A stretch of DNA of 64,000 bases, taken from positions 147,437 through 211,436 of the forward strand of contig CAZTEU010000001.1 of NCBI GenBank assembly GCA_964612105.1. Direction: 5' to 3'. The notes under the pieces were generated by a model that was not told where the DNA came from, made no database searches, and saw nothing but the letters and a program-made list of their open reading frames with translations. Numbering within the stretch: position 1 is the first letter of the stretch; the number at the start of each line of letters is the position of its first letter. Positions 5,050 to 63,443 of this stretch are shown here, piece after piece. The DNA comes from an uncultured Gammaproteobacteria bacterium. Its GTDB lineage: Bacteria; Patescibacteriota; Patescibacteriia; Magasanikbacterales; UBA922. The position numbers and the translations under genes were made by a program.

Positions 5050-5802
5050 ATGATAAAAATTAACAGACCAATTGTTTTTTTTGACTTAGAAACAACAGGT
5101 GTAGATCCTTTTACAGACAGAATAGTGCAAGTTGGTGCTATAAAAATACACCCGGATGGAGAGAAGGAAGAGTGGAATCAGTTAATTAATCCACAGATAG
5201 CAATTCCACAGGTTGTTATAGACGTTCATGGTATTACAGATGAAATGGTAAAAGATAAGCCAACTTTTGCTGAGTTAACTCAGAAGTTCGCTGAGTTCTT
5301 TCATGAAGTTGATTTAGGTGGTTATAATGCAAAGAATTTCGATATACCAATGTTAATGGCTGAGTTTAACCGTGTAGGACTAGAAATGGATTTAGAATCT
5401 GTAAAGATTATAGATCCAATGGCTATTTTCCGTAAAAAAGAACCTAGAACATTAGAGGCTGCTTACAAGAAATATTGCGATAAGGAGTTGGTAGATGCAC
5501 ATGATGCTATGGTGGATATAAGAGCATCTATAGAAGTTTTTGAGGGTCAGATGAAGCATTATGATGACTTACCAGATAATCTAGATGAAATGCATGAATA
5601 TTGCTTCCCAGAAGACCCGGATGCGTATGATGCAGAAGGAAAACTAAAGATAATAGATGGAGAAATTACAATTAACTTTGGAAAGCACAAAGGAAAACCA
5701 CTACAAAGATTAGCTGTAACAGATCCTGGATATCTAGAATGGATACTAAATGGAAGCTTCTCAGAAAAAGTTAAGAAGGCAGTAAAGGATCACAAAAAAT
5801 AA
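5050..5802 (+). CDS. DEDDh 3'-5' exonuclease (DnaQ/epsilon-like)
   Basis: Exo I motif FFDLETTG, plus later D and H-x4-D motifs (DAHDAMVD). 250 aa. Confidence 0.75.
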   Translation: MIKINRPIVFFDLETTGVDPFTDRIVQVGAIKIHPDGEKEEWNQLINPQIAIPQVVIDVHGITDEMVKDKPTFAELTQKFAEFFHEVDLGGYNAKNFDIPMLMAEFNRVGLEMDLESVKIIDPMAIFRKKEPRTLEAAYKKYCDKELVDAHDAMVDIRASIEVFEGQMKHYDDLPDNLDEMHEYCFPEDPDAYDAEGKLKIIDGEITINFGKHKGKPLQRLAVTDPGYLEWILNGSFSEKVKKAVKDHKK

Positions 5803-5804
5803 AA

Positions 5805-5830
5805 AAGTCCCCTTATGGGGATTTTTTTAT
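5805..5830 (+). terminator. rho-independent terminator
   Basis: GTCCCC-TTAT-GGGGAT hairpin followed by a T-run. Confidence 0.7.
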
Positions 5831-5931
5831 ATCTCACTATTTACAATTTTTTATAAAGAGTGAGGTTCTGGCGACGCATGCGTATGCAATTGTCGCCATT
5901 GTGAACCCTCCCTTAGATGTAGCCGAAGCTA

Positions 5932-6777
5932 CTATCGTTTGCCCTTCTCCTCCTCAGTGACATCGAAGGGCTTGATGTCGTTGAAGCCGGTATCCGCCTT
6001 GGTGCCCGGCAAGTTATTCACCACACCGACCTTGTTGAGCTCAGCGAGCGACACGTTGCCATAGCAGGTCGCTTTCACCCTTCTCTCCAGATTCATCCCG
6101 TACCCTTTCACGGTGGGAATATCCGAACGGCTCATGGTCTTGCAGAACTGCTCAACATCTCCTGGTCGGACATACTTGTGGTCTTTCTGGATGTACTTGA
6201 CATCGTGATTGACTGCATACGCCCAGTGTGCCGTCGTGAGAAACATCCTGGATAAAACACTCTCACTGGGCGATACCTTCTGCCAGGATTCGACCTTCTC
6301 GGCCAGCTTGTCCCATGCGACCATTTTGTGATAGGTATCGAGAACAACGCCGGTCACCCGTGTTGTGTACCTTCCGTCCCACGACATGTGTGGTTTGGTT
6401 GGATCTGGGATGATCTGCTTGACCGTGTTCGCATACCACGTCAAGAGGACTCTCCCCTTGCTGTAGTACTGACTCGGGACAACCTTGCCCTCCTCATCTT
6501 TCCGGAGCATCGTCCCAGCATCCGCACTGATCATGACCGAGATGCACTCAGCCACCTTCGGAGCGTGGAGTTGGTACTTCAGGACAGACTGGATCCGCTT
6601 GCTATACCCGTAGAACGCCACCTCCTTCGAGGGAACCTCGAAGTCAGCCAGGTTCATGTTGACGCACTGAAGCGTCTTGTTTGTGCCGTAGCCACCACCC
6701 ACCTGGGCAGCGCCACAGCCGATCATCAGGAACATCACGACGCCCATCAACAGGGCACCGAACAGTTTCTTCTTCAT
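5932..6777 (-). CDS. lipoprotein, hypothetical (GC-rich island)
   Basis: Start moved to the ATG at 6777 (MKKKLFGALLMGVVMFLMIGCGAA), which sits behind SD GGAGGAAG. The N-terminus is a signal peptide with lipobox LMIGC. ~56% GC in an AT-rich backbone. No recognisable domain. Confidence 0.6.
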   Translation of the reverse strand: MKKKLFGALLMGVVMFLMIGCGAAQVGGGYGTNKTLQCVNMNLADFEVPSKEVAFYGYSKRIQSVLKYQLHAPKVAECISVMISADAGTMLRKDEEGKVVPSQYYSKGRVLLTWYANTVKQIIPDPTKPHMSWDGRYTTRVTGVVLDTYHKMVAWDKLAEKVESWQKVSPSESVLSRMFLTTAHWAYAVNHDVKYIQKDHKYVRPGDVEQFCKTMSRSDIPTVKGYGMNLERRVKATCYGNVSLAELNKVGVVNNLPGTKADTGFNDIKPFDVTEEEKGKR

Positions 6778-14547: not shown

Positions 14548-14618
14548 TCGGAGATCGTCTAATGGTAGGACTCCAGGTTCTGGTCCTGGCTATCGGGGTT
14601 CGAATCCCTGTCTCCGAA
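14548..14618 (+). tRNA. tRNA-Gln (anticodon CUG)
   Basis: Cloverleaf with acceptor TCGGAGA/TCTCCGA (U1-A72), D-arm GTCT-AATGGTA-GGAC, anticodon stem CCAGG/CCTGG with loop TTCTGGT, and T-arm CGGGG-TTCGAAT-CCCTG. Discriminator A. CCA is not encoded. Confidence 0.8.
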
Positions 14619-24148: not shown

Positions 24149-24964
24149 TTATCCCTTCTTGAGACGCAGAATTCGGTCCGTGCTGTGGAAGTTGTTGTCG
24201 AGATTGTCCCAGCGCTGTCTCCAGTGATCCGCGTGCCAGTAGACACAGCTGACGAGCTTGTTGTGGTCAGGGTTACGCCAGTCTGTGAAGACAAACACTA
24301 CCCTGTCTCGGAGCACGATGGGGATCTCGTCTTGGTGCTCCAACAAGTGCCGACCATGCTTTTCGCCGAGATGGGCATACCCAATCGTGGCACGCGCGAC
24401 CATGGCTTCGCCTCTGACACTCTCCTCACTATCTTCCAGGAAGTTGATAATCTCGTAGGTGCGGTCACCAACGGTCATCTCGGTCGGGAGAGCATCCTCT
24501 TCCTGCTTGAGACGCAGGATTCGGCTGATATTGCGGAACTGGTAGCCAATCCATTGCCATTGTCTCATCCAGTGTTTGCCATTCCAGTGTATGGTGCAAA
24601 TGTCCCCAGGATTGGCGTAATCGCGACGCCAGTTCGTGAAGACGAAGGTATTACCCCGTAGCTCGACTGGAATCTGGTGTTGGTGTTTCAGCAGATGTTC
24701 GCCTGCTTCCTTATTGGGGTTTGCGTCAATCTCGCTCACACGCCTCACCACTGTCTGACCATCTACCGACCCCTCTCCTTCCTCGTGGAACCCGAGAATC
24801 TCGTAGGTGCGGTCACCAACGGTCATCTCCTGAGGAAGGGAATCCCGGAAGAGCTTGTCGCAGAACCTCTTGACCTTCCCGGTGTTTTCCGGGTTGATCA
24901 GGTCTTCGAATCTCTTTTCACCCAACTGCTCCCGCAGATGAGCCAATTTACGCAAGGTGCCCAT
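24149..24964 (-). CDS. hypothetical protein with two tandem ~115-aa repeats (GC-rich island)
   Basis: PQEMTVGDRTYEILGFHEEGEGSV...FVFTNWRRDYANP...RILRLKQ is repeated as PTEMTVGDRTYEIINFLEDSEESV...FVFTDWRNPDHN...RILRLKK. ATG at 24964 sits behind SD GGGTGAGGAGAG. The track's GTG at 24970 is rejected. Confidence 0.5.
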   Translation of the reverse strand: MGTLRKLAHLREQLGEKRFEDLINPENTGKVKRFCDKLFRDSLPQEMTVGDRTYEILGFHEEGEGSVDGQTVVRRVSEIDANPNKEAGEHLLKHQHQIPVELRGNTFVFTNWRRDYANPGDICTIHWNGKHWMRQWQWIGYQFRNISRILRLKQEEDALPTEMTVGDRTYEIINFLEDSEESVRGEAMVARATIGYAHLGEKHGRHLLEHQDEIPIVLRDRVVFVFTDWRNPDHNKLVSCVYWHADHWRQRWDNLDNNFHSTDRILRLKKG

Positions 24965-25198
24965 TTGCACCTCTCCTCACCCTTTTGTACAAAGGGTTCA
25001 CTCCTCACCAACATGACGAAGAGGAAGACGAGTTGGTGTTCAGGTCTTCTCTTTGCATACCTAAGTAAATATACACAGAGAAGACCTAAACCATAGTATT
25101 TTAAAGAGCTATTTGACTGGTCAGATTAACATTAAATCACTATTTTGTCAATATAACCTAATTATATAACATATTTACCTAATTCTAGCTATAAAGTA

Positions 25199-27224: not shown

Positions 27225-27357
27225 AATATCCTTTACTTTTTCTCTATTTATGCTAACCTAATTACATGAACGTATTTAATGTATTCACAACAAAGAAGAC
27301 CAAGAAGGTCCTCCCTCGGAAGAGGTAGTTGTGTTGCATTAGAAAAAATTGCTAACC

Positions 27358-27384
27358 AGCCACCTCAACCGAGGTGGTTTTTCT
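27358..27384 (+). terminator. intrinsic terminator/attenuator hairpin
   Basis: CCACCTC-aacc-GAGGTGG followed by TTTTT. No gene ends here on the + strand. Confidence 0.5.
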
Positions 27385-27399
27385 ATTGGGGGTGGGAAA

Positions 27400-27612
27400 G
27401 ATGAGTGGGAATCAGGAACATGGCGCAGTCTCAAACGACAAGGACGGGAACGATCTCTTTCCAGGAGATGTTGTCTGGCCAGGATGGGCACTGTTCGCAG
27501 GAAGACGAGGGGTTGTGCAAGAATCCACATACAGCTCTGCTATCGTTCATCTCGTGGAGGAGGGTGGTACAGCAAGTGGAACAATCCGCAGTTCCTCAGT
27601 ATCCAAACGCTG
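27400..27612 (+). other. GC-rich unit: either a 70-aa ORF with an SD, or a structured RNA
   Basis: GGGGGTGGGaaagATG, then MSGNQEHGAVSNDKDGNDLFPGDVVWPGWALFAGRRGVVQ... Three + frames are simultaneously open. Flanked by hairpin terminators at 27358-27384 and 27633-27674. Confidence 0.3.
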
Positions 27613-27632
27613 AGCAAGGAGGACACACAGCG

Positions 27633-27674
27633 GGGATCTAGGCATTAGCCTGATCCCCGTGTCTCTTTTTTTGG
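27633..27674 (+). terminator. rho-independent terminator
   Basis: GGGGATC-(12 nt)-GATCCCC, then gtgtctc, then T7. Confidence 0.55.
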
Positions 27675-27704
27675 CTAATTCTAGCCTTTTTTTTTACTTT
27701 ACTA

Positions 27705-27733
27705 TTGACAAATAGCATATATTGTGTTACTAT
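27705..27733 (+). promoter_or_regulatory. sigma70-like promoter for 27850 lipoprotein gene
   Basis: TTGACA, a 17-nt spacer, then TACTAT. Confidence 0.45.
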
Positions 27734-27849
27734 ATCCCGTCTTTGATTCTTTCAAAGAACACGTGTTCTATGTTGCTTTATTGACTTTTATTGTCAACTA
27801 AGCAAAATAATTATATACTGCTGGAGTATTTCAGCGTAATCACATAGCT

Positions 27850-28638
27850 ATGAAAGGTAAAATCCTATCATTAGGAGCCGTGGCTGTATTGTTACTTGTA
27901 GGAGCAGGGTGTGCCCAAGTGGAAAGCCCAGCACTAGAGAAACAAGCCACAGAACCTGTAGTGCAAAACACTACAGATGGGACTACAGTAGAGACTGTAG
28001 TATCAGATGACAGTATTACTCTGTCTGCTGTTCCAACAGCAATTCCAGGTGAAGTATTACTTACTTGGAATGTACCTACTGAGCTTGAAAGCCCAGAAGG
28101 TTACCGTCTTGTTCGTTCTGCAAATGTAGAACCAAGGTTTCCTGGTAGTTTCTGGTTTCACCAGGGACAGGAGCGTCGTCATATCACCTGGATTAACGTA
28201 CCAGCGGGAAGACAATATTTCCGTTTATGTCAGTTCAAAGGTGGTGAATGTGTGGCGTACAGTAATCAAGTTAGTGTAAATCTTGGAGAAAATGCAAATT
28301 CTACTGCATCTCCTTACACTACTAAACGTACAGAAGTAGAAGTTATACGTAATTTCTACAATGCACTAATGAGCGACAACAAAGCAGACGCTCTAAAATA
28401 TGTACCTGCAAGTGTACGATCAGCGGATTTCTTCAAACAAAAGTGGGAAGAGATACAAGATTGGCAGTTCCAGAATGTTGAGATTCGTCTTGACACAATT
28501 ACTGGAGATATCTTCAGCATAAAGAAAGTGGATATCGTAGTAGGTGTAAAAGTTGATGGAAAAATTGTAGCTGGCCCTAGACAAGTTACAGTAGACTTCC
28601 GTAACGACAAATGGTACATCGTGGACTTCCAGTTATAA
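27850..28638 (+). CDS. lipoprotein, hypothetical
   Basis: Signal peptide with lipobox LLVGAGC. 262 aa. No SD, AT-rich (native class). Confidence 0.55.
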   Translation: MKGKILSLGAVAVLLLVGAGCAQVESPALEKQATEPVVQNTTDGTTVETVVSDDSITLSAVPTAIPGEVLLTWNVPTELESPEGYRLVRSANVEPRFPGSFWFHQGQERRHITWINVPAGRQYFRLCQFKGGECVAYSNQVSVNLGENANSTASPYTTKRTEVEVIRNFYNALMSDNKADALKYVPASVRSADFFKQKWEEIQDWQFQNVEIRLDTITGDIFSIKKVDIVVGVKVDGKIVAGPRQVTVDFRNDKWYIVDFQL

Positions 28639-28654
28639 ACAAAAACAAATTAAA

Positions 28655-28682
28655 AACACCCCTTATGGGGTGTTTTTGTTTA
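28655..28682. terminator. bidirectional terminator (CCCCUUAUGGGG loop)
   Basis: AACACCCC-TTAT-GGGGTGTT followed by a T-run. Serves 27850 (+) and 28692 (-). Confidence 0.7.
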
Positions 28683-28691
28683 CAGAGATGT

Positions 28692-29354
28692 TCATTTAGT
28701 TACTGTTGGAAGAGGTTTAGTAAGCAATATCTGCCACATCCCCTTTACTCGTGCAAATGTTTCTCTAATCTCCATAATAAAAACCGAATCATCCGTATAG
28801 CTATCTGCAGAAAAACCAACTGTATCTATCCCAAAGTTTTCGCAGAAAAATATAATTCTAGGCAGATGAAAGTCTTGAGATACAGCAATTACTGATTCTA
28901 ATCCATACACATGCTTTTCCCTGTAACAACTCTCGTATGTGCGGTATCCATGTGGATCTACAGATACATCATTTATGGGTATTCCATTGTCTATTGCGTA
29001 GCGCAACATAATGTTTACTTCGTCTGCACGCTTACCTCCATCATCACCTGTCATTATTAACTTCTTTACCTTTCCTTTTCTATATAAATCAATTCCAGCA
29101 TCTACTCTGGCCTTCTGCATATTACTTTGGGTACTTTTGTCTTCCATTCCACCACCAAATATTAGAGCGATATCACGTGAAGGAACATCTTCTACAGATG
29201 GGTGAATATTATTTCCATATGGGAATATTATTGCCCATGATATAACTATTAGAAGTAGACTAATCGACAGAAGAGCAACAGAAATAAACTGAAATACAAC
29301 CAAGGATAGGTCTTGGTTGGGTATGTGATTCTTTTTTGGGTTCCTAAATATCAT
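28692..29354 (-). CDS. SanA/YdcF (DUF218) family membrane protein
   Basis: N-terminal TM. ALIFGGG...MTGDDGG...VDPHGYRTYES matches the DUF218 core. Confidence 0.7.
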   Translation of the reverse strand: MIFRNPKKNHIPNQDLSLVVFQFISVALLSISLLLIVISWAIIFPYGNNIHPSVEDVPSRDIALIFGGGMEDKSTQSNMQKARVDAGIDLYRKGKVKKLIMTGDDGGKRADEVNIMLRYAIDNGIPINDVSVDPHGYRTYESCYREKHVYGLESVIAVSQDFHLPRIIFFCENFGIDTVGFSADSYTDDSVFIMEIRETFARVKGMWQILLTKPLPTVTK

Positions 29355-29459
29355 AAAATGTAGTTGAGAGATTATAGCAGATATTGTGTATTTTTCAAGT
29401 ACACATACTTTTCCACACTCCCCTAGACTTTATTTGTTTTATACTCTATACTTTTTCCA

Positions 29460-29690
29460 TACCCTTGAGGTATGGCGTCGTGCATGCGCGGATGTTGTCT
29501 TGCCACCAACCCTCATCGAGGGTAGGTCAGCAGATGCAGCCGTAGGAACTCTACTAATTATCAAGAGGTCCAGTCCTTGCTTTTTCTGCCCCGTCGATCA
29601 CCAAATAAGGCTTCGGGGCTCATCACGTAGGAGCGACTGACGGTTCTTAGGGGGATCTTAGTTGTGTACGACGCCCCCTCCATTTGACCA
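29460..29690 (+). ncRNA. candidate small structured RNA (~215 nt, GC-rich), identity unknown
   Basis: GC-rich block with no credible ORF. The 5' end GGCGTCGTGC (29466-29475) pairs with the 3' end GTACGACGCC (29668-29677) as a closing stem. Followed by terminator 29720-29744. Confidence 0.3.
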
Positions 29691-29719
29691 AAAAAGGTTT
29701 TTGTCCAAATGTTGTAAAA

Positions 29720-29744
29720 AAACGCTTAAATAAGCGTTTTTTTT
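29720..29744. terminator. bidirectional terminator
   Basis: A7-CGCTTA-aa-TAAGCG-T8. Confidence 0.65.
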
Positions 29745-29754
29745 ATATTCTCTA

Positions 29755-29783
29755 TTGACAGGTTGTCCTATTTCAAGTATAAT
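29755..29783 (+). promoter_or_regulatory. consensus sigma70 promoter (TTGACA-N17-TATAAT)
   Basis: TTGACAggttgtcctatttcaagTATAAT is a perfect -35/-10 pair with 17-nt spacing. It sits directly upstream of a GC-rich non-coding stretch. Confidence 0.7.
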
Positions 29784-29789
29784 CCCCAG

Positions 29790-30245
29790 TTGTTTCCTGT
29801 TAGAACTCCGTATAAGGAAGAACGATCTCACGGCTCGATCAAGTAGTTGAGGGGGGTAGAAAAGGAAGGACATAAGTCACCCTTCCTTAGAGGCCAACCA
29901 AAGCCACCCTTCTTCGTCCTCTGCATTGCAAGTCGAAAAAAAACAAAAGATCGAGTGTAAGTCCCTAGTACTCCAGTGATGATCGGCCCCTTATGGCGTT
30001 GAGTACGCGGAAATGATGGAGGTGTGTGTTCCCAAGCTGCTCGGGGTTCAATTCCTGAAAACTGTCGCTTTCTGGCTAAGGCCTGATTGTAGGATGACGG
30101 ACGAGACAAAACAGTGGAAAGTTCACTCCCCTTCTACGTGTACGGTAGCGACGTGCGGTTCTGTAGTCCTAATATTTGGATTACATTCCGCACGTCGCTG
30201 CCACACGTTCGACCATATAAACCTCATTAAGATGTGGTTTTTTGT
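29790..30245 (+). ncRNA. candidate ~455-nt GC-rich non-coding RNA, identity unknown
   Basis: Downstream of the perfect promoter. No ORF with SD or homology. Several GC stems (AAGGAAGG...CCTTCCTT at 29868-29896, and a 14-bp inverted repeat 30143-30157/30188-30202). Ends at T-run 30235-30249. Confidence 0.35.
30143..30202 (+). repeat. 14-bp inverted repeat (stem-loop with 30-nt loop)
   Basis: GGTAGCGACGTGCGG ... CCGCACGTCGCTGCC. Confidence 0.7.
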
Positions 30246-30252
30246 TTGGTAA

Positions 30253-31605
30253 TTATACTACTATTGATTCACTATTCTTTGGAATATCTGTTTCTATTCC
30301 CAATTCATCATTTATTCTTCCTGATAACGCCTCTAGTGCCTTTGGTTCCCCATGAATACATATAACCTTACTTGGTTTTTCTTCAGCCTCACTAATCCAC
30401 CTTACAAGCTTATTTTGATCTCCATGAGCAGATAATGCACCTATTGCTTTGATAGTACTTTTTACCTCAACATCCTGCCCAAATATCTTTACGCTCTTAT
30501 GCCCATCATATATTTTTCTTCCACGAGTGCCTTTTGCTTGATAGCCAACAATAATAAGTGTGGACTTTGGATCCGATAAATACCTAAACAAGTGATGAAT
30601 AATACGCCCACCATTCATCATTCCTGCTCCTGCTATAATTATTTTTGGACCTTTTATGTTGTTTATTTTTTTAGACTCTTCTTTTGAGCGTGTAATTTGT
30701 AGCTGTGGAAACTTAAAAAAATCATCGCCTTTTGTGTATTGGTCACAAGCCTCCTTGTCATAGTATTCTGGATATTTCCTGTACACTGGCAATGCATCTA
30801 TAGCTAGTGGACTATCCAGGAATATGGGAACATCTGGAAGAGTTTTATCTTCCTCACTCATTTCATCCAGCTCATACAAAAGCTCTTGTGTGCGCTCCAT
30901 AGAAAATGCAGGAATCATGATTGTCCCACCACGGGCAACTCCTTCTTTTATTAAATCCAAAATAATCTTCTTTCTTTCTGTGATTGTTTCGTGAATACGA
31001 TCACCATATGTTGATTCACAAACTAATGTATCTATTTTTCCAAGACCTTCTGTTTCTTTAAGTATAGGCACGTTATCATTTCCAATATCCCCAGAAAAAG
31101 CAATTACTTTTCCATTTATATTGACTTCTATGAAAGAGGCTCCAAAAATATGACCAGCATCCTTAAATATTGCATAGTCCCCATCCCCAAGATCTACTTT
31201 TTCATGATAATCAATACCATTACATTGGGAAACAGACCTTTCTATTTCTTCCTCATTAAATAATATGGGTGTTTGATATTTCTTATTATTATAGGTCATT
31301 ATACGAAACGCATCCTGCCATAATAATTTTATCAGACCAAATGTTCCTTTTGTCATATGAATAGAACCTGTATACCCATCTTTTACTAACTTTGGAATCC
31401 TGCCGGAGTGGTCTGTATGAGCATGAGTTAACAAAACATGATCAATTGTGTGTGGGTCGAAAGGAAAATTATCAGCGTTTCTCCCTTCGTTAAAATCTCC
31501 TCCTTGAAACATACCACAATCAACTAAAATGCGCTTAGAGCCCGTATCAATTAGATGGCATGAGCCTGTAACTTCTTCTGCTGCTCCGAAAAAAGTGATT
31601 TTCAT
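30253..31605 (-). CDS. beta-CASP MBL-fold ribonuclease (RNase J / CPSF-like)
   Basis: MKITFFGAAEEVTGSCHLI, HAHTDHSG, a beta-CASP region and a C-terminal RMMBL-like part. Start taken at the second Met. Confidence 0.7.
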   Translation of the reverse strand: MKITFFGAAEEVTGSCHLIDTGSKRILVDCGMFQGGDFNEGRNADNFPFDPHTIDHVLLTHAHTDHSGRIPKLVKDGYTGSIHMTKGTFGLIKLLWQDAFRIMTYNNKKYQTPILFNEEEIERSVSQCNGIDYHEKVDLGDGDYAIFKDAGHIFGASFIEVNINGKVIAFSGDIGNDNVPILKETEGLGKIDTLVCESTYGDRIHETITERKKIILDLIKEGVARGGTIMIPAFSMERTQELLYELDEMSEEDKTLPDVPIFLDSPLAIDALPVYRKYPEYYDKEACDQYTKGDDFFKFPQLQITRSKEESKKINNIKGPKIIIAGAGMMNGGRIIHHLFRYLSDPKSTLIIVGYQAKGTRGRKIYDGHKSVKIFGQDVEVKSTIKAIGALSAHGDQNKLVRWISEAEEKPSKVICIHGEPKALEALSGRINDELGIETDIPKNSESIVV

Positions 31606-44670: not shown

Positions 44671-45294
44671 TTAACGTGTTGCGTAAAACTCAATAATTAA
44701 TTTTACATCAAAAAGTTTATCGACATCTTCGTCCGCCGGATCATGTAACACCTTTCCAGATTTCTTGTTCGGATCTACTAACAACCATGATGGAGGTGTG
44801 TGTTTACTTAATTTATCTGTAATTTCGTTGAAAAAGCTTTTGGTTTCTTTTCCTGGCTTAATTGAAACTTCATCACCTGCTTTTACTAGGTATGAAGGAA
44901 TGTTCATCTTCTTTCCGTTTACAACAAATAAGCCGTGATTTACTATCTGACGAGCCTGTGCTCGTGTAGACGCAAATCCCATACGATATACAACATTATC
45001 TAGTCTTGATTCTAAGATTTGCAATAAGTTCTGACCAGAATCACCATCTCTTCGTGTTGCTTCATTAGCATATCCACGAAATTGCTTTTCTCTTATACCG
45101 TATACAAATTTTGCTTTTTGCTTTTCTGCTAATTGCTTTCCAAAAGAAGACTCAGACTTACGACGCCTAGCTGTACCATGAACACCAGGCTTCTGACCTA
45201 GTCTACGTGCAACCTTAGTAGGATTAGTCTTTAATCCAAGATTAATCCCGAAACGTCTAGCTATTTTATTTTTTGGTCCTATATATCTACCCAT
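44671..45294 (-). CDS. rpsD: 30S ribosomal protein S4
   Basis: MGRYIGPKNKIARRFG is the canonical S4 N-terminus. The track start 45330 is rejected because it overlaps rpsK. Confidence 0.85.
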   Translation of the reverse strand: MGRYIGPKNKIARRFGINLGLKTNPTKVARRLGQKPGVHGTARRRKSESSFGKQLAEKQKAKFVYGIREKQFRGYANEATRRDGDSGQNLLQILESRLDNVVYRMGFASTRAQARQIVNHGLFVVNGKKMNIPSYLVKAGDEVSIKPGKETKSFFNEITDKLSKHTPPSWLLVDPNKKSGKVLHDPADEDVDKLFDVKLIIEFYATR

Positions 45295-51153: not shown

Positions 51154-51349
51154 AAATATAATGAGTGTCCCGCTTTGACACTCATAGTAGTCCGAATGGG
51201 TCGTAAGAACCACATGAGGTTGGGGACCTCAGACACGCGCAAGAGGCGGGAGGTAAGGTGGGTGCCTCAAACGAGTGCGGAGTGCCAAAGCGGAACCATC
51301 CACATGCCAGGGTGGGGAGTGGGCTGTTCTGAACCCAGGCATATAAGAT
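51154..51349 (-). promoter_or_regulatory. GC-rich structured 5' leader of mnmA (~195 nt) with promoter 51356-51384
   Basis: Minus-strand TTGACA (51384-51379), a 17-nt spacer, then TATAGT (51361-51356). The leader is ~60% GC. A 9-bp hairpin ATGAGTGTC/GACACTCAT (51161-51185) ends 7 nt before the AUG. Confidence 0.45.
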
Positions 51350-51386
51350 AGATAGACTATAGTGATTATTTGCTGTTTTGTCAACA

Positions 51387-54855: not shown

Positions 54856-56697
54856 TCAGATGCAGACCTGGGTAGGCCTTCCAATGGTCTTGTAGAAAAA
54901 CCACTCGATCCCGAATGCACAACCCTTGCCGTTCTTGTAGTCACAGCTCTGATCCTTGGGGTCGCTGTTGTCGCACTCAACACAGAACTTCTGGTTTTTC
55001 TTCTCGGCTGCCCAGTAGACAGTAGCACACTGCTCACCGAACTTTGACCCCTTGCAGTCCTTGTCGGCTCCACAGCAACCAAAGTCCTCATGGTGACATT
55101 TGCCGTTGAGATCACAGTAGTCCGCGGTGCAGACCTTGCCATCAGAGCAGTCCTTGTTGACCTTGCACAGCTTACATCCAGCGATTGGTTTGTATTGACA
55201 CCCATTCGTCTTGTTGCAGGAGTCTGTTGTGCACAGATCCCCGTCATCGCATGACAATTCCTTGCCTGTACAGATACTTCCCTTGCACTTGTCGTTGAGG
55301 GTGCAGACGTTCATGTCTGTGCAAATTGCACCATCGTCCATCGGGATGAAGGTGCACTTGCCGGTCTTCTGGTCACAGGAGTCCTTGGTGCAAGGGTTCT
55401 TGTCCACACACTCCACTCCCATGCCAAGACACTTGCCGTCCTTGCATCCATCGCTGGTCGTGCAAGAATCGTTGTCGTTGCAGTCGATACCATTCTGGGA
55501 TGGTGTGAAGGCACAATCTCCAGTCTTGGAGTCGCAGAAATCCTTGGTGCATGGATTGTTGTCTTCACACACCTTTGTGGTTTTCGTGATGCAGACCCCA
55601 CTGATGCACTTTTCCACAGTGCAGACGTCGCTTTCCTTGCACTTCTTCATCTCTGTGATCTTGCAACCCTTGCTTGTGCAGACCATCTTCTCGATGCACG
55701 ACTGAGCGTCGACTTTGCACTGATCGTGGTCTGGGCTGTGAGCACACTTCCCTGTTCCAAGAACGCACGAGTCGATGGTGCATGCGATTCCATCCTTGCA
55801 GTCGACAGACTCGTTCTTGCACTTGCTGTTGGCTGTGCAGGTGTCGGTGGTGCAGAGGTTCTTGTCATCACAATCACCTGACTTGGTGCACTCGCAAACG
55901 TTGATGCCTTTGGTGCACGTGTTCTTGATGCACTGATGATTGACTGTGCAAGAATCCTCGTCATCGCACTCGACGTCTGTAGAGCAACAGTCCTCGATCT
56001 CCTCGTGTATGCACTCTTTCAAGGTTTCCAAATCGCAGGAGTCTGCAGTACAAGGTTTGCCGTCGTCGCAGGACTTTTGGTTCACAGTGAACACACACTT
56101 CCCGCTCTCGAAGACGCATAGATCGTCTGTGCAATCAACCCCGTCGTCGCAAATGACATTGTCCGTGTTCACACAAAGACTGTCCTGACATACGTCGACG
56201 GTGCAGAGATTCTCATCCAAATCACACACATTGCCAATCGACTTGTACACGCAACCCTTGCCTGGATCGCATGAATCGTCCGTGCAGACATTGTCGTCGT
56301 TGCAAACCTTCCACGAATCCATGTCTCCGACACACTTCCCGCTTTCGAGATCGCACTTGGAAATCTCGGTGCAGGAGTTGTTATCATCACAGGTCGCGGT
56401 GTTTGGCATATGCACACAGCCGACATCTTCTTCGCAGACATCTTTGGTGCAAATCTTGCCGTCGTCGCATTTGTCGGGGACGTAGTCGCACTTGTTGTTG
56501 CTGTTGCATTTGCCAATCCAGCAACTCTTGATGCAATCATCCTTCGTCTCACAGAAACCAGGAGGAAGTTGTGTATCCTCAGAGCCCTGATCTGCAAAGG
56601 TAGCAGCGTCAGCCGGCCCTTTGACCGAATCTTCGCTACATGAAATTGAGAGGAAAATCACCACGAACATCGTGATGATGAGGTCCCGGTTCATCAT
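54856..56697 (-). CDS. giant cysteine-rich repeat lipoprotein/secreted protein (GC-rich island)
   Basis: Start at MMNRDLIITMFVVIFLSISC, 7 nt after SD AAGGAG. Dozens of repeats of the form C-x-D-x-N/D-x-C-T-x-D-x-C-D-x-x-T/S-G-x-C, about 18% Cys. Resembles Myxococcus-type cysteine-rich repeats (inference). Confidence 0.65.
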   Translation of the reverse strand: MMNRDLIITMFVVIFLSISCSEDSVKGPADAATFADQGSEDTQLPPGFCETKDDCIKSCWIGKCNSNNKCDYVPDKCDDGKICTKDVCEEDVGCVHMPNTATCDDNNSCTEISKCDLESGKCVGDMDSWKVCNDDNVCTDDSCDPGKGCVYKSIGNVCDLDENLCTVDVCQDSLCVNTDNVICDDGVDCTDDLCVFESGKCVFTVNQKSCDDGKPCTADSCDLETLKECIHEEIEDCCSTDVECDDEDSCTVNHQCIKNTCTKGINVCECTKSGDCDDKNLCTTDTCTANSKCKNESVDCKDGIACTIDSCVLGTGKCAHSPDHDQCKVDAQSCIEKMVCTSKGCKITEMKKCKESDVCTVEKCISGVCITKTTKVCEDNNPCTKDFCDSKTGDCAFTPSQNGIDCNDNDSCTTSDGCKDGKCLGMGVECVDKNPCTKDSCDQKTGKCTFIPMDDGAICTDMNVCTLNDKCKGSICTGKELSCDDGDLCTTDSCNKTNGCQYKPIAGCKLCKVNKDCSDGKVCTADYCDLNGKCHHEDFGCCGADKDCKGSKFGEQCATVYWAAEKKNQKFCVECDNSDPKDQSCDYKNGKGCAFGIEWFFYKTIGRPTQVCI

Positions 56698-56856
56698 CTC
56701 AGCTCCTTCTTGACTGCACTTGGCAGTACTGTTGCGCACACGAATACAAATGGTCAGCTTGAGCTAACACACACAATATCCATAAGATACTCTGTGAGCT
56801 AGCCCAAAGCATAGTATAAAAAGAACGCTGTTGTTCCTATTATAGGAAAACAGCTA

Positions 56857-63032: not shown

Positions 63033-63182
63033 TCTATTGACATTGATTTGTTATGTTTGTATACTCTCCCCAGAACTTTTGTTATTTTCCTTGTTAGAAC
63101 GATTTAAATGTGCACAATTTAATAGTTTTTTTGACAGAAAATATATCGGTTCGTTAAAATTCATAAGTTAGACAAAATAGTT

Positions 63183-63443
63183 ATGTCAAAAAAATTATTT
63201 GTTGGAAACCTTGACTGGGGTGTAAAGGGAGAAGACCTACAAGGTCTATTCTCAGAGCACGGAGCAGTTGAGGAATCAGTTGTTATCGAAGATCGTGCAA
63301 CTGGTCGTTCCAAAGGATTCGGTTTCGTCACCATGACAAATGATGATGAAGCTGACAAAGCAGTAGAGGCTCTTAACGGACAAGATTTCAAAGGAAGAGA
63401 TCTTACAGTAAACGAAGCAAGACCTCCAAAACCTCGTTACTAA
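63183..63443 (+). CDS. RRM-domain RNA-binding protein
   Basis: RNP2 LFVGNL and RNP1 KGFGFVTM. 86 aa. Confidence 0.8.
   Translation: MSKKLFVGNLDWGVKGEDLQGLFSEHGAVEESVVIEDRATGRSKGFGFVTMTNDDEADKAVEALNGQDFKGRDLTVNEARPPKPRY

Follow-up and report, generated by a model that had tools for sequence, protein, structure and literature searches.

The stretch of DNA analysed here (64 kb, referred to below as the window) has its largest ORF-free gap at 29355-30252, and within this gap lies a GC-rich, ORF-free unit of about 455 nt on the + strand (29790-30245; unit C), which follows a consensus sigma-70 promoter and converges on the gene for a 450 amino acid beta-CASP/RMMBL metallo-hydrolase (30253-31605, - strand), the only gene with a conserved position beside the RNA. 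The product of this gene had been called RNase J-like in the first-pass annotation, but it is not a canonical RNase J. The GC content of 29790-30245 is 0.47-0.50 against a window mean of 0.38, so the description of a GC-rich, non-coding stretch of about 455 nt behind the promoter was correct. The neighbourhood is made up of conserved core genes (secA, rpiB, hpf, murB, DUF218, beta-CASP, corA, murJ, lepA and recJ), which argues that the locus is not an island, and searches of phage and plasmid collections found nothing similar to unit C, nor was there an exact match in IMG/VR to a 20-nt arm of the rod hairpin described below; the suggestion that the RNA might be island-borne is thus unsupported. 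[quoted passage not shown]

The promoter, TTGACA-N17-TATAAT at 29755-29783 (+ strand), matches the consensus at 12 of 12 positions, with the -35 hexamer at 29755-29760 and the -10 hexamer at 29778-29783 separated by a 17-nt spacer. A scan of both strands found no second exact occurrence in the 64 kb, confirming that a full consensus promoter is rare in the window, and the exact TTGACA was present in all nine homologous units of relatives as well. When one mismatch was tolerated, the window contained 7 promoter sites compared to 1.15 +/- 1.0 expected from shuffled sequences, and the remaining near-consensus sites sit 5' of an RRM RNA-binding protein gene, the rpsM-rpsK-rpsD cluster and other genes which would be expected to be highly expressed. 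In standard sigma-70 geometry the +1 position lies 7 nt past the -10 hexamer, which would place the transcription start of unit C at about 29789-29790.

Folding z-scores for unit C were -4.2 to -4.6 on the + strand and -2.4 to -3.1 on the - strand, and the predicted fold of the + strand is a series of three domains. Domain 1 (29789-30017, 229 nt) is closed by a predicted 37-bp interrupted stalk in which 29789-29833 pairs with 29973-30017, beginning at the predicted 5'-terminal nucleotide. Its predicted interior is branched and includes an 8-bp hairpin at 29862-29888 (AAGGAAGG/CCUUCCUU, pairing probability 0.96) with GGGGGGUAGAAAA 5' to it; the inverted repeat here is AAGGAAGG/CCTTCCTT (29862-29869/29881-29888), and its 3' arm has an alternative partner, UAAGGAAG, at 29813-29820. 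Domain 2 (30018-30131, 114 nt) is predicted to adjoin domain 1 with no linker at all, and holds a T-loop-like hairpin at 30041-30058 (containing the GGGGUUCAAUUCC picked out earlier) together with a small GGC-UAAG-GCC hairpin. The T-loop-like GGGGTTCAATTCC which the first-pass annotation had placed at 30047-30059 is indeed present, but its true coordinates are 30043-30055. Domain 3 (30136-30208) is predicted to be a rod hairpin of 29 bp in three segments of 6, 15 and 8 bp. The long inverted repeat within it, previously given as 14 bp at 30143-30202, is real but measures 15 bp (GGTAGCGACGTGCGG/CCGCACGTCGCTGCC, 30144-30158/30188-30202), and it is the flanking helices that extend the rod to 29 bp; the sole position in it that does not form a Watson-Crick pair is G.U on the + strand and would be C.A on the - strand. 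Both of the inverted repeats named at the outset were found, and GNRA, UUCG and T-loop-like types are among the predicted hairpin loops.

Beyond the rod there is a terminator-like feature at 30211-30243, a weak prediction consisting of a short imperfect hairpin (about 30221-30238) followed by T6 (30238-30243), which a consensus terminator scan did not list. A distance of 10 nt separates it from the convergent gene's stop codon; this T-run had been thought to double as the terminator of that gene, and its closeness to the stop codon stands, but the sharing itself is only plausible.

Directly 5' of unit C is a further GC-rich, ORF-free transcript (unit B, 29458-29745, + strand; fold z -4.9), which may be a sibling RNA gene. 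Its promoter is weaker (TAGACT-17-TATACT, 29424-29452), its closing stem is GGCGUCGUG/UACGACGCC, it has a strong bidirectional terminator at 29716-29743, and it has positional counterparts in relatives L009 and L011 with which it could not be aligned. A third GC-rich block (block A, 27380-27670) was considered as another RNA and rejected, as it is a gene for a 73 amino acid protein (27392-27613, + strand) with a Shine-Dalgarno (SD) sequence, conserved in relative L114 (38% identity, E 6e-13) and belonging to no Pfam family. Since block A proves to be protein-coding, GC-richness alone is no marker of RNA genes in this genome.

No sign of coding capacity was found in unit C by any of the approaches used. 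Pfam searches gave no match for any ORF in or around it; on the transcribed strand no SD-preceded ATG, GTG or TTG ORF of at least 12 codons was found in unit C or in seven homologous units, and on the antisense strand no SD-preceded ORF was conserved among the homologues. A tblastx comparison among the homologues yielded no signal, tblastn detected no remnants of uvrA/B/C or HAD genes in the gap, and the longest ORF (93 amino acids, antisense) had no relative among 1.84 billion representative proteins in a full HMMER scan. On these results a pseudogene or small protein gene was rejected, there being no coding or pseudogene signal of the kind that a disrupted frame in the homologues would give, and the earlier statement that no ORF has an SD sequence or homology can be upheld. 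A type I toxin-antitoxin system, in which a small hydrophobic ORF with an SD sequence lies antisense to the RNA, was likewise rejected, as no SD-preceded antisense ORF was found in the window and none was conserved among homologues.

Known RNA families were sought in the window, in unit C alone and in the loci of 17 relatives, using both gathering and E-value thresholds. The sole Rfam 15 match across the whole window was a tRNA-Gln at 14548; no family matched unit C or its relatives at threshold, none was recurrent at E<=10 over the window and the loci of seven relatives, and when 29000-30700 and the 467-nt unit by itself were scanned permissively, only terminator- or hairpin-type chance matches far under gathering scores came up. 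ARAGORN found no tRNA or tmRNA at unit C, nor in 42 loci, so that the original failure to see a tRNA or tmRNA fold, or an RNase P or SRP motif, was borne out. RNase P RNA has conserved blocks CR-I to CR-V, including P4, and its ends pair in P1; neither its A nor its B form matched unit C at E<=10 or was found in the relatives, the homologues have no common conserved blocks, and the 5' end of unit C pairs internally. A tmRNA, standard or permuted, carries a tRNA-like acceptor and T-arm with CCA as well as a tag reading frame, and this too was rejected, with both ARAGORN and Rfam negative and no subsequent acceptor strand or CCA following the T-loop-like hairpin at 30041-30058. For 6S RNA there was no Rfam match and the predicted fold has three serial domains, and for SRP RNA, which is marked by a domain IV hairpin with conserved loops, there was no Rfam match at E<=10 over 29000-30700. 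The serial closed domains of unit C do resemble a group II intron, which has a 5' GUGYG, six domains and a conserved domain V, but GUGYG was not found at the 5' end of any homologue and there was no Intron_gpII match, so that an ORF-less intron of this type was rejected. None of ROOL, GOLLD, OLE, HEARO or raiA was found in the window or the relatives at gathering or E-value thresholds.

Three further kinds of element were dismissed on their organisation. TIGR arrays, the Tas-associated guides reported in CPR, consist of tandem repeats with box C/D motifs beside a Nop-domain Tas gene (PMC12045711). Unit C has no tandem or direct repeat units and its neighbours are the DUF218 and beta-CASP genes, with no Nop domain. 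A CsrB-like sponge was rejected because the loops predicted for unit C contain no GGA and no loop motif recurs among the homologues. REP/BIME elements, which exist as many genomic copies of one palindrome, were rejected as no second copy of any hairpin arm was found within the 64-kb window.

The locus was compared in eight relatives with a beta-CASP protein 65-77% identical to that of the window, and six of them (L009, L014, L062, L115, L116 and L118) have a counterpart unit, which always lies past the beta-CASP stop codon and before the next gene, on the converging strand. These counterparts have an exact TTGACA, a 17-nt spacer and TATAnT, followed by 350-580 nt that are ORF-free with a GC content well above the locus average, and they finish with a long near-perfect hairpin and a T-run. 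The unit is absent from the remaining two, L114 and L011, and because these are close relatives it is taken to be accessory or dispensable and not housekeeping. Tandem pairs of units were found in two genomes: those of the more distant L018 (61%) have a common 3' module, and those of L118 have a common 5' hairpin module, in which G.U, A-U and G-C exchanges pair on the transcribed strand only. In more distant relatives without the unit, the intergenic GC content at the same spot is mostly 0.06-0.37, and where the unit is present its GC content is 10-20 points over background in at least seven species. As the genomes are AT-biased and the unit-free spots have such low values, the high GC content of unit C must be maintained by selection. 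We take its folding energy, which likewise exceeds background by far, to be maintained by selection too.

The sequences of these units have not been conserved along with their position. Searches among the syntenic units by blastn, nhmmer and tblastx recovered only terminators and a few short common words, a MAFFT alignment gave 36% column identity, showing the sequences not to be alignable, and a k-mer enrichment analysis of 13 transcripts found no k-mer conserved beyond chance, which is unusual in a functional RNA of this size. Short colinear pieces are common only to the window and its closest relative, L009; these are GUUGUU(U)CC, at the 5' end, and GGGGGUAGAAAA with a hairpin behind it. 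Contigs of the same species (n=9, from several metagenomes) are 100% identical over the gap, and four pairs of contigs from relatives are identical over the RNA too; being identical, contigs from one population are therefore uninformative on selection. Among the relatives, none of intermediate divergence turned up.

The predicted folds of the units have more in common than their sequences. Across the homologues the folding z-scores ranged from -3.9 to -10, the promoter strand folding better in 6 of 8 C-type transcripts. When each transcript was cut at its terminator and folded, the predicted minimum free energy structures had the same three-domain layout in five of seven cases (the window, L009, L014, L115 and L062), and these five also have the promoter, the stalk from +1, domain 2, the rod and the convergence on beta-CASP by which we would define a new family. 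In all five, domain 1 starts 6-7 nt past the -10 hexamer (the predicted +1) and spans 229-274 nt with an interrupted stalk of 19-37 bp; 0-4 nt separate it from domain 2 (105-180 nt), and a rod of 16-29 bp begins 0-4 nt past domain 2 and is followed by the terminator. The rods of L009, L014, L115 and L062 (16-28 bp) are unrelated in sequence and occupy the same position, and T-loop-like 7-nt loops are predicted in domain 2 of L009 and L062 as well. Long 3' hairpins are found at the rod position in L116 and in L118b, but these two, like L018, do not show the domain layout. In dinucleotide shuffles a helix from the 5' end to nt 215-290 arose in about 4%, and domain 1 with an abutting domain 2 in about 2%, so that five of seven would arise by chance with a probability of about 1e-6 or less, a value which is indicative only because the thresholds were set after the data had been seen. 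The architecture thus appears to be shared at the level of domains between RNAs that differ in sequence, the support for this being the predicted layout and not nucleotide-level covariation. The first-pass annotation had raised the possibility of a structured RNA specific to this lineage, and relatives that keep the position, the promoter and the fold architecture without alignable sequence support that idea.

Several known RNAs share some of these properties. Like the 6S and Ms1-type RNAs, unit C is a stand-alone gene with a strong promoter, a shape kept more than its sequence, long imperfect duplexes and, as proposed below, an action through protein binding; however, 6S RNA is 150-240 nt long with one rod, a central bubble and paired ends, whereas unit C is about 455 nt long with three serial closed domains, is not universal in its clade and gave no Rfam 6S match at E<=10. 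With ROOL, GOLLD, OLE, HEARO and raiA it shares a size above 400 nt, a multi-domain organisation, GC enrichment as islands in AT-rich genomes and a gene context that gives no obvious function, but those RNAs have conserved cores and proven covariation and are in Rfam, and unit C has no nucleotides conserved across species. The stalks of pre-rRNA also combine a very strong promoter with distant segments forming long helices round structured interiors, a fast-evolving sequence in a kept layout and strong hairpins stacked at the 3' side; those of unit C differ in enclosing no rRNA or other known RNA and in belonging to a transcript of only about 455 nt in total. Finally, the CsrB and RsmZ sponges are similar in being a few hundred nt long, with a strong promoter, an intrinsic terminator, quick sequence turnover and an action in trans by sequestration (as proposed for unit C), but they carry many GGA loop motifs, of which unit C has none predicted, nor any repeated motif. 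A literature search found no report of such RNAs in CPR and Rfam 15 likewise contains no family for them. Unit C is therefore of the generic kind "orphan large structured ncRNA", and differs from the known classes in having no conserved sequence core while keeping its syntenic position and serial three-domain fold.

We consider it probable, with a good measure of doubt, that unit C is a genuine functional gene for a structured non-coding RNA of a new family, and the best reading of its distribution is that this family is previously undescribed and confined to a single subclade of Magasanikbacteria-like CPR bacteria. From the promoter alone, the transcript is likely to be abundant or highly expressed, and the buried 5' nucleotide, together with the 3' rod and terminator, suggests that it may be stable. 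In the mechanism that we propose, the consensus promoter would drive a stand-alone non-coding RNA of about 455 nt at a high level, the first nucleotide of which would already lie in the long stalk and the 3' end of which would be formed by a 16-29-bp rod and the terminator. With its ends in stalk and rod, the RNA would be shielded at both from end-dependent RNases, so that it could accumulate as a stable particle. As shape and long duplexes are kept and sequence is not, action in trans through structure would be most likely, with the RNA binding or sequestering a protein which recognises RNA duplex or shape, possible partners being a dsRNA-binding protein, an RNase or an RNA chaperone; that the RNA acts by protein binding specifically is, however, a tentative proposal, and a specific core for catalysis or ligand binding is less likely.

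The duplexes from which protein binding is proposed could also be sites of processing, the stalk, the rod and the helix that closes domain 2 all being RNase III-type stems and the products being smaller RNAs from the interiors. RNase III cuts long double-stranded RNA stems, as in pre-rRNA, and a stalk of 19-37 bp and a rod of 16-29 bp would suffice as substrates for a double-strand-specific RNase; in addition, the domains adjoin like cassettes, and a strong promoter with one to three hairpins at the far end is reminiscent of a small operon for stable RNAs. We nevertheless regard such a precursor as unlikely, the interiors being no better conserved than the stems and no known RNA lying inside the domains. 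It is distinctly unlikely that unit C is instead a regulator which pairs through a short exposed segment with mRNAs of its own genome, the remainder being a drifting scaffold that stabilises it. This would fit with the perfect complementarity over 18 nt between 30013-30030 and the mRNA of rpsD (ribosomal protein S4; 44787-44804, blast E 0.004), within the coding region at codons for KHTPPSW, and with five shared 14-mers observed compared to 0.12 expected. The 18-nt match, although statistically unusual, is absent from L009 and L116, whose own rpsD genes were compared, and an antisense action on rpsD was rejected for this reason; furthermore, the 18-mer is partly within the predicted domain 1 stalk and not in an open loop, in seven genomes pairing with the beta-CASP translation start showed no excess (z -1.7 to +1.3), and at 450 nt the RNA is much larger than seed-type sRNAs usually are.

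In every case the unit is convergent with the 3' end of beta-CASP, and in most relatives its promoter is back-to-back with the start of uvrB at about 20-180 nt, which could mean that strong convergent transcription itself is selected, to allow conditional read-through into beta-CASP or, in the relatives, to compete with a divergent uvrB promoter, and that the transcript is functionless. Such a cis-acting role is quite improbable: one to three strong hairpins with T-runs precede beta-CASP, so read-through into it is disfavoured, the unit persists in the window though uvrB is gone, and transcription alone would not keep the GC enrichment, the extreme folding energy or the common layout. The hypervariable sequence and the absence from L114 and L011 would suit a decaying remnant (a pseudogene, an old insertion or a degenerate tRNA or rRNA locus keeping its promoter by chance), as would the tRNA-like gene that L019, a more distant relative, has at this place and the T-loop-like piece in the window. 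We hold this to be highly improbable, since AT bias would erode neutral GC and yet the GC content stays 10-20 points up in at least seven species, in all of which the exact -35 hexamers and 17-nt spacers are kept, and there is no protein or RNA homology. The size, GC enrichment, strong promoter and T-loop-like hairpin are features typical of, or expected in, stable RNAs such as RNase P RNA, tmRNA, 6S and SRP RNA, but that one of these has diverged in CPR beyond the reach of the Rfam models is extremely improbable, as a search of the 467 nt with lax filters gave no match even at E<=10, nor was there one in relatives, ARAGORN was negative, the homologues have none of the conserved sequence blocks which all those families have, the 5' end pairs internally instead of with the 3' end, and two close relatives do without the unit altogether.

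Unit C also shows that a predicted fold architecture can persist at a syntenic locus despite complete sequence turnover, and pipelines that discover RNAs by covariance models or alignment would be blind to RNAs whose fold is kept and sequence lost. Beyond the universal set, non-coding RNAs that are both large and structured are rare, and the new classes have tended to reveal new biology. We know of none described for the CPR, which comprises a large share of bacterial diversity and in which, to our knowledge, there has been almost no experimental RNA biology. It is conceivable, though speculative, that unit C is the first member of a class of large (350-780 nt), multi-domain and highly expressed RNAs of Magasanikbacteria-like CPR bacteria, with long helices stacked quasi-continuously, variable branched crowns and a conserved shape serving an episymbiont-specific role, which might for example be titration of a dsRNA-binding nuclease or scaffolding of an RNP in ultra-small episymbionts. 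Were expression and structure to be confirmed, the locus would be a testable entry point, providing an RNA of about 455 nt with defined ends and domains.

The locus also varies in its other genes. In L009 and L011, uvrB and uvrA (and in L011 uvrC too) lie beyond beta-CASP towards murB, and in the window (27225-30252 compared) and L114 there is no uvrA/B/C at the locus, tblastn finding none anywhere in the 64 kb. Downstream of beta-CASP in L019 (62% identity) there is a tRNA-like gene (6365-6436, - strand) with G3.U70 and an 8-nt anticodon loop, which narrowly exceeds the threshold of the Rfam tRNA model, with 29.9 bits, and is missed by ARAGORN. At the same spot in L063 (64% identity; 5700-5885, - strand) a promoter, TTGACA-N17-TACACT, drives an apparent ORF of 57 amino acids with a strong SD sequence (GGGAGGGAG) and not an RNA. 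The spot downstream of beta-CASP thus seems to be a landing place for varied small, highly expressed units.

Elsewhere in the window, the near-consensus promoter at 63037-63185 (+ strand) drives the RRM-type RNA-binding protein gene, whose leader over its first 35 nt or so (CUCCCCAGAACUUUUGUUAUUUUCCUUGUUAGAAC) is similar to the 5' end of the unit C RNA (CCCCAGUUGUUUCCUGUUAGAAC). Further 3' in this leader is a palindromic AAUGUGCACAAUUUA, which is common to the leader of another RRM gene (L123). A conserved protein-binding site common to unit C and the RRM mRNA was considered and rejected, as the L123 RRM leader keeps a different element, AATGTGCACARTTTA. At 51214-51384 (- strand), another near-consensus promoter, TTGACA-17-TATAGT, is followed by a C-rich, GC-rich leader of about 140 nt before an mnmA-like tRNA methyltransferase gene, with no Rfam match. 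An ORF of 273 amino acids at 24149-24970 (- strand) has a GC content of 0.52, an internal tandem duplication and no Pfam match, and gene callers disagree on its strand in identical contigs. A cysteine-rich protein of 627 amino acids with six Dicty_CTDC repeats is encoded at 54856-56739 (- strand) in a patch of GC 0.51, and is unusual for such a small bacterial genome.
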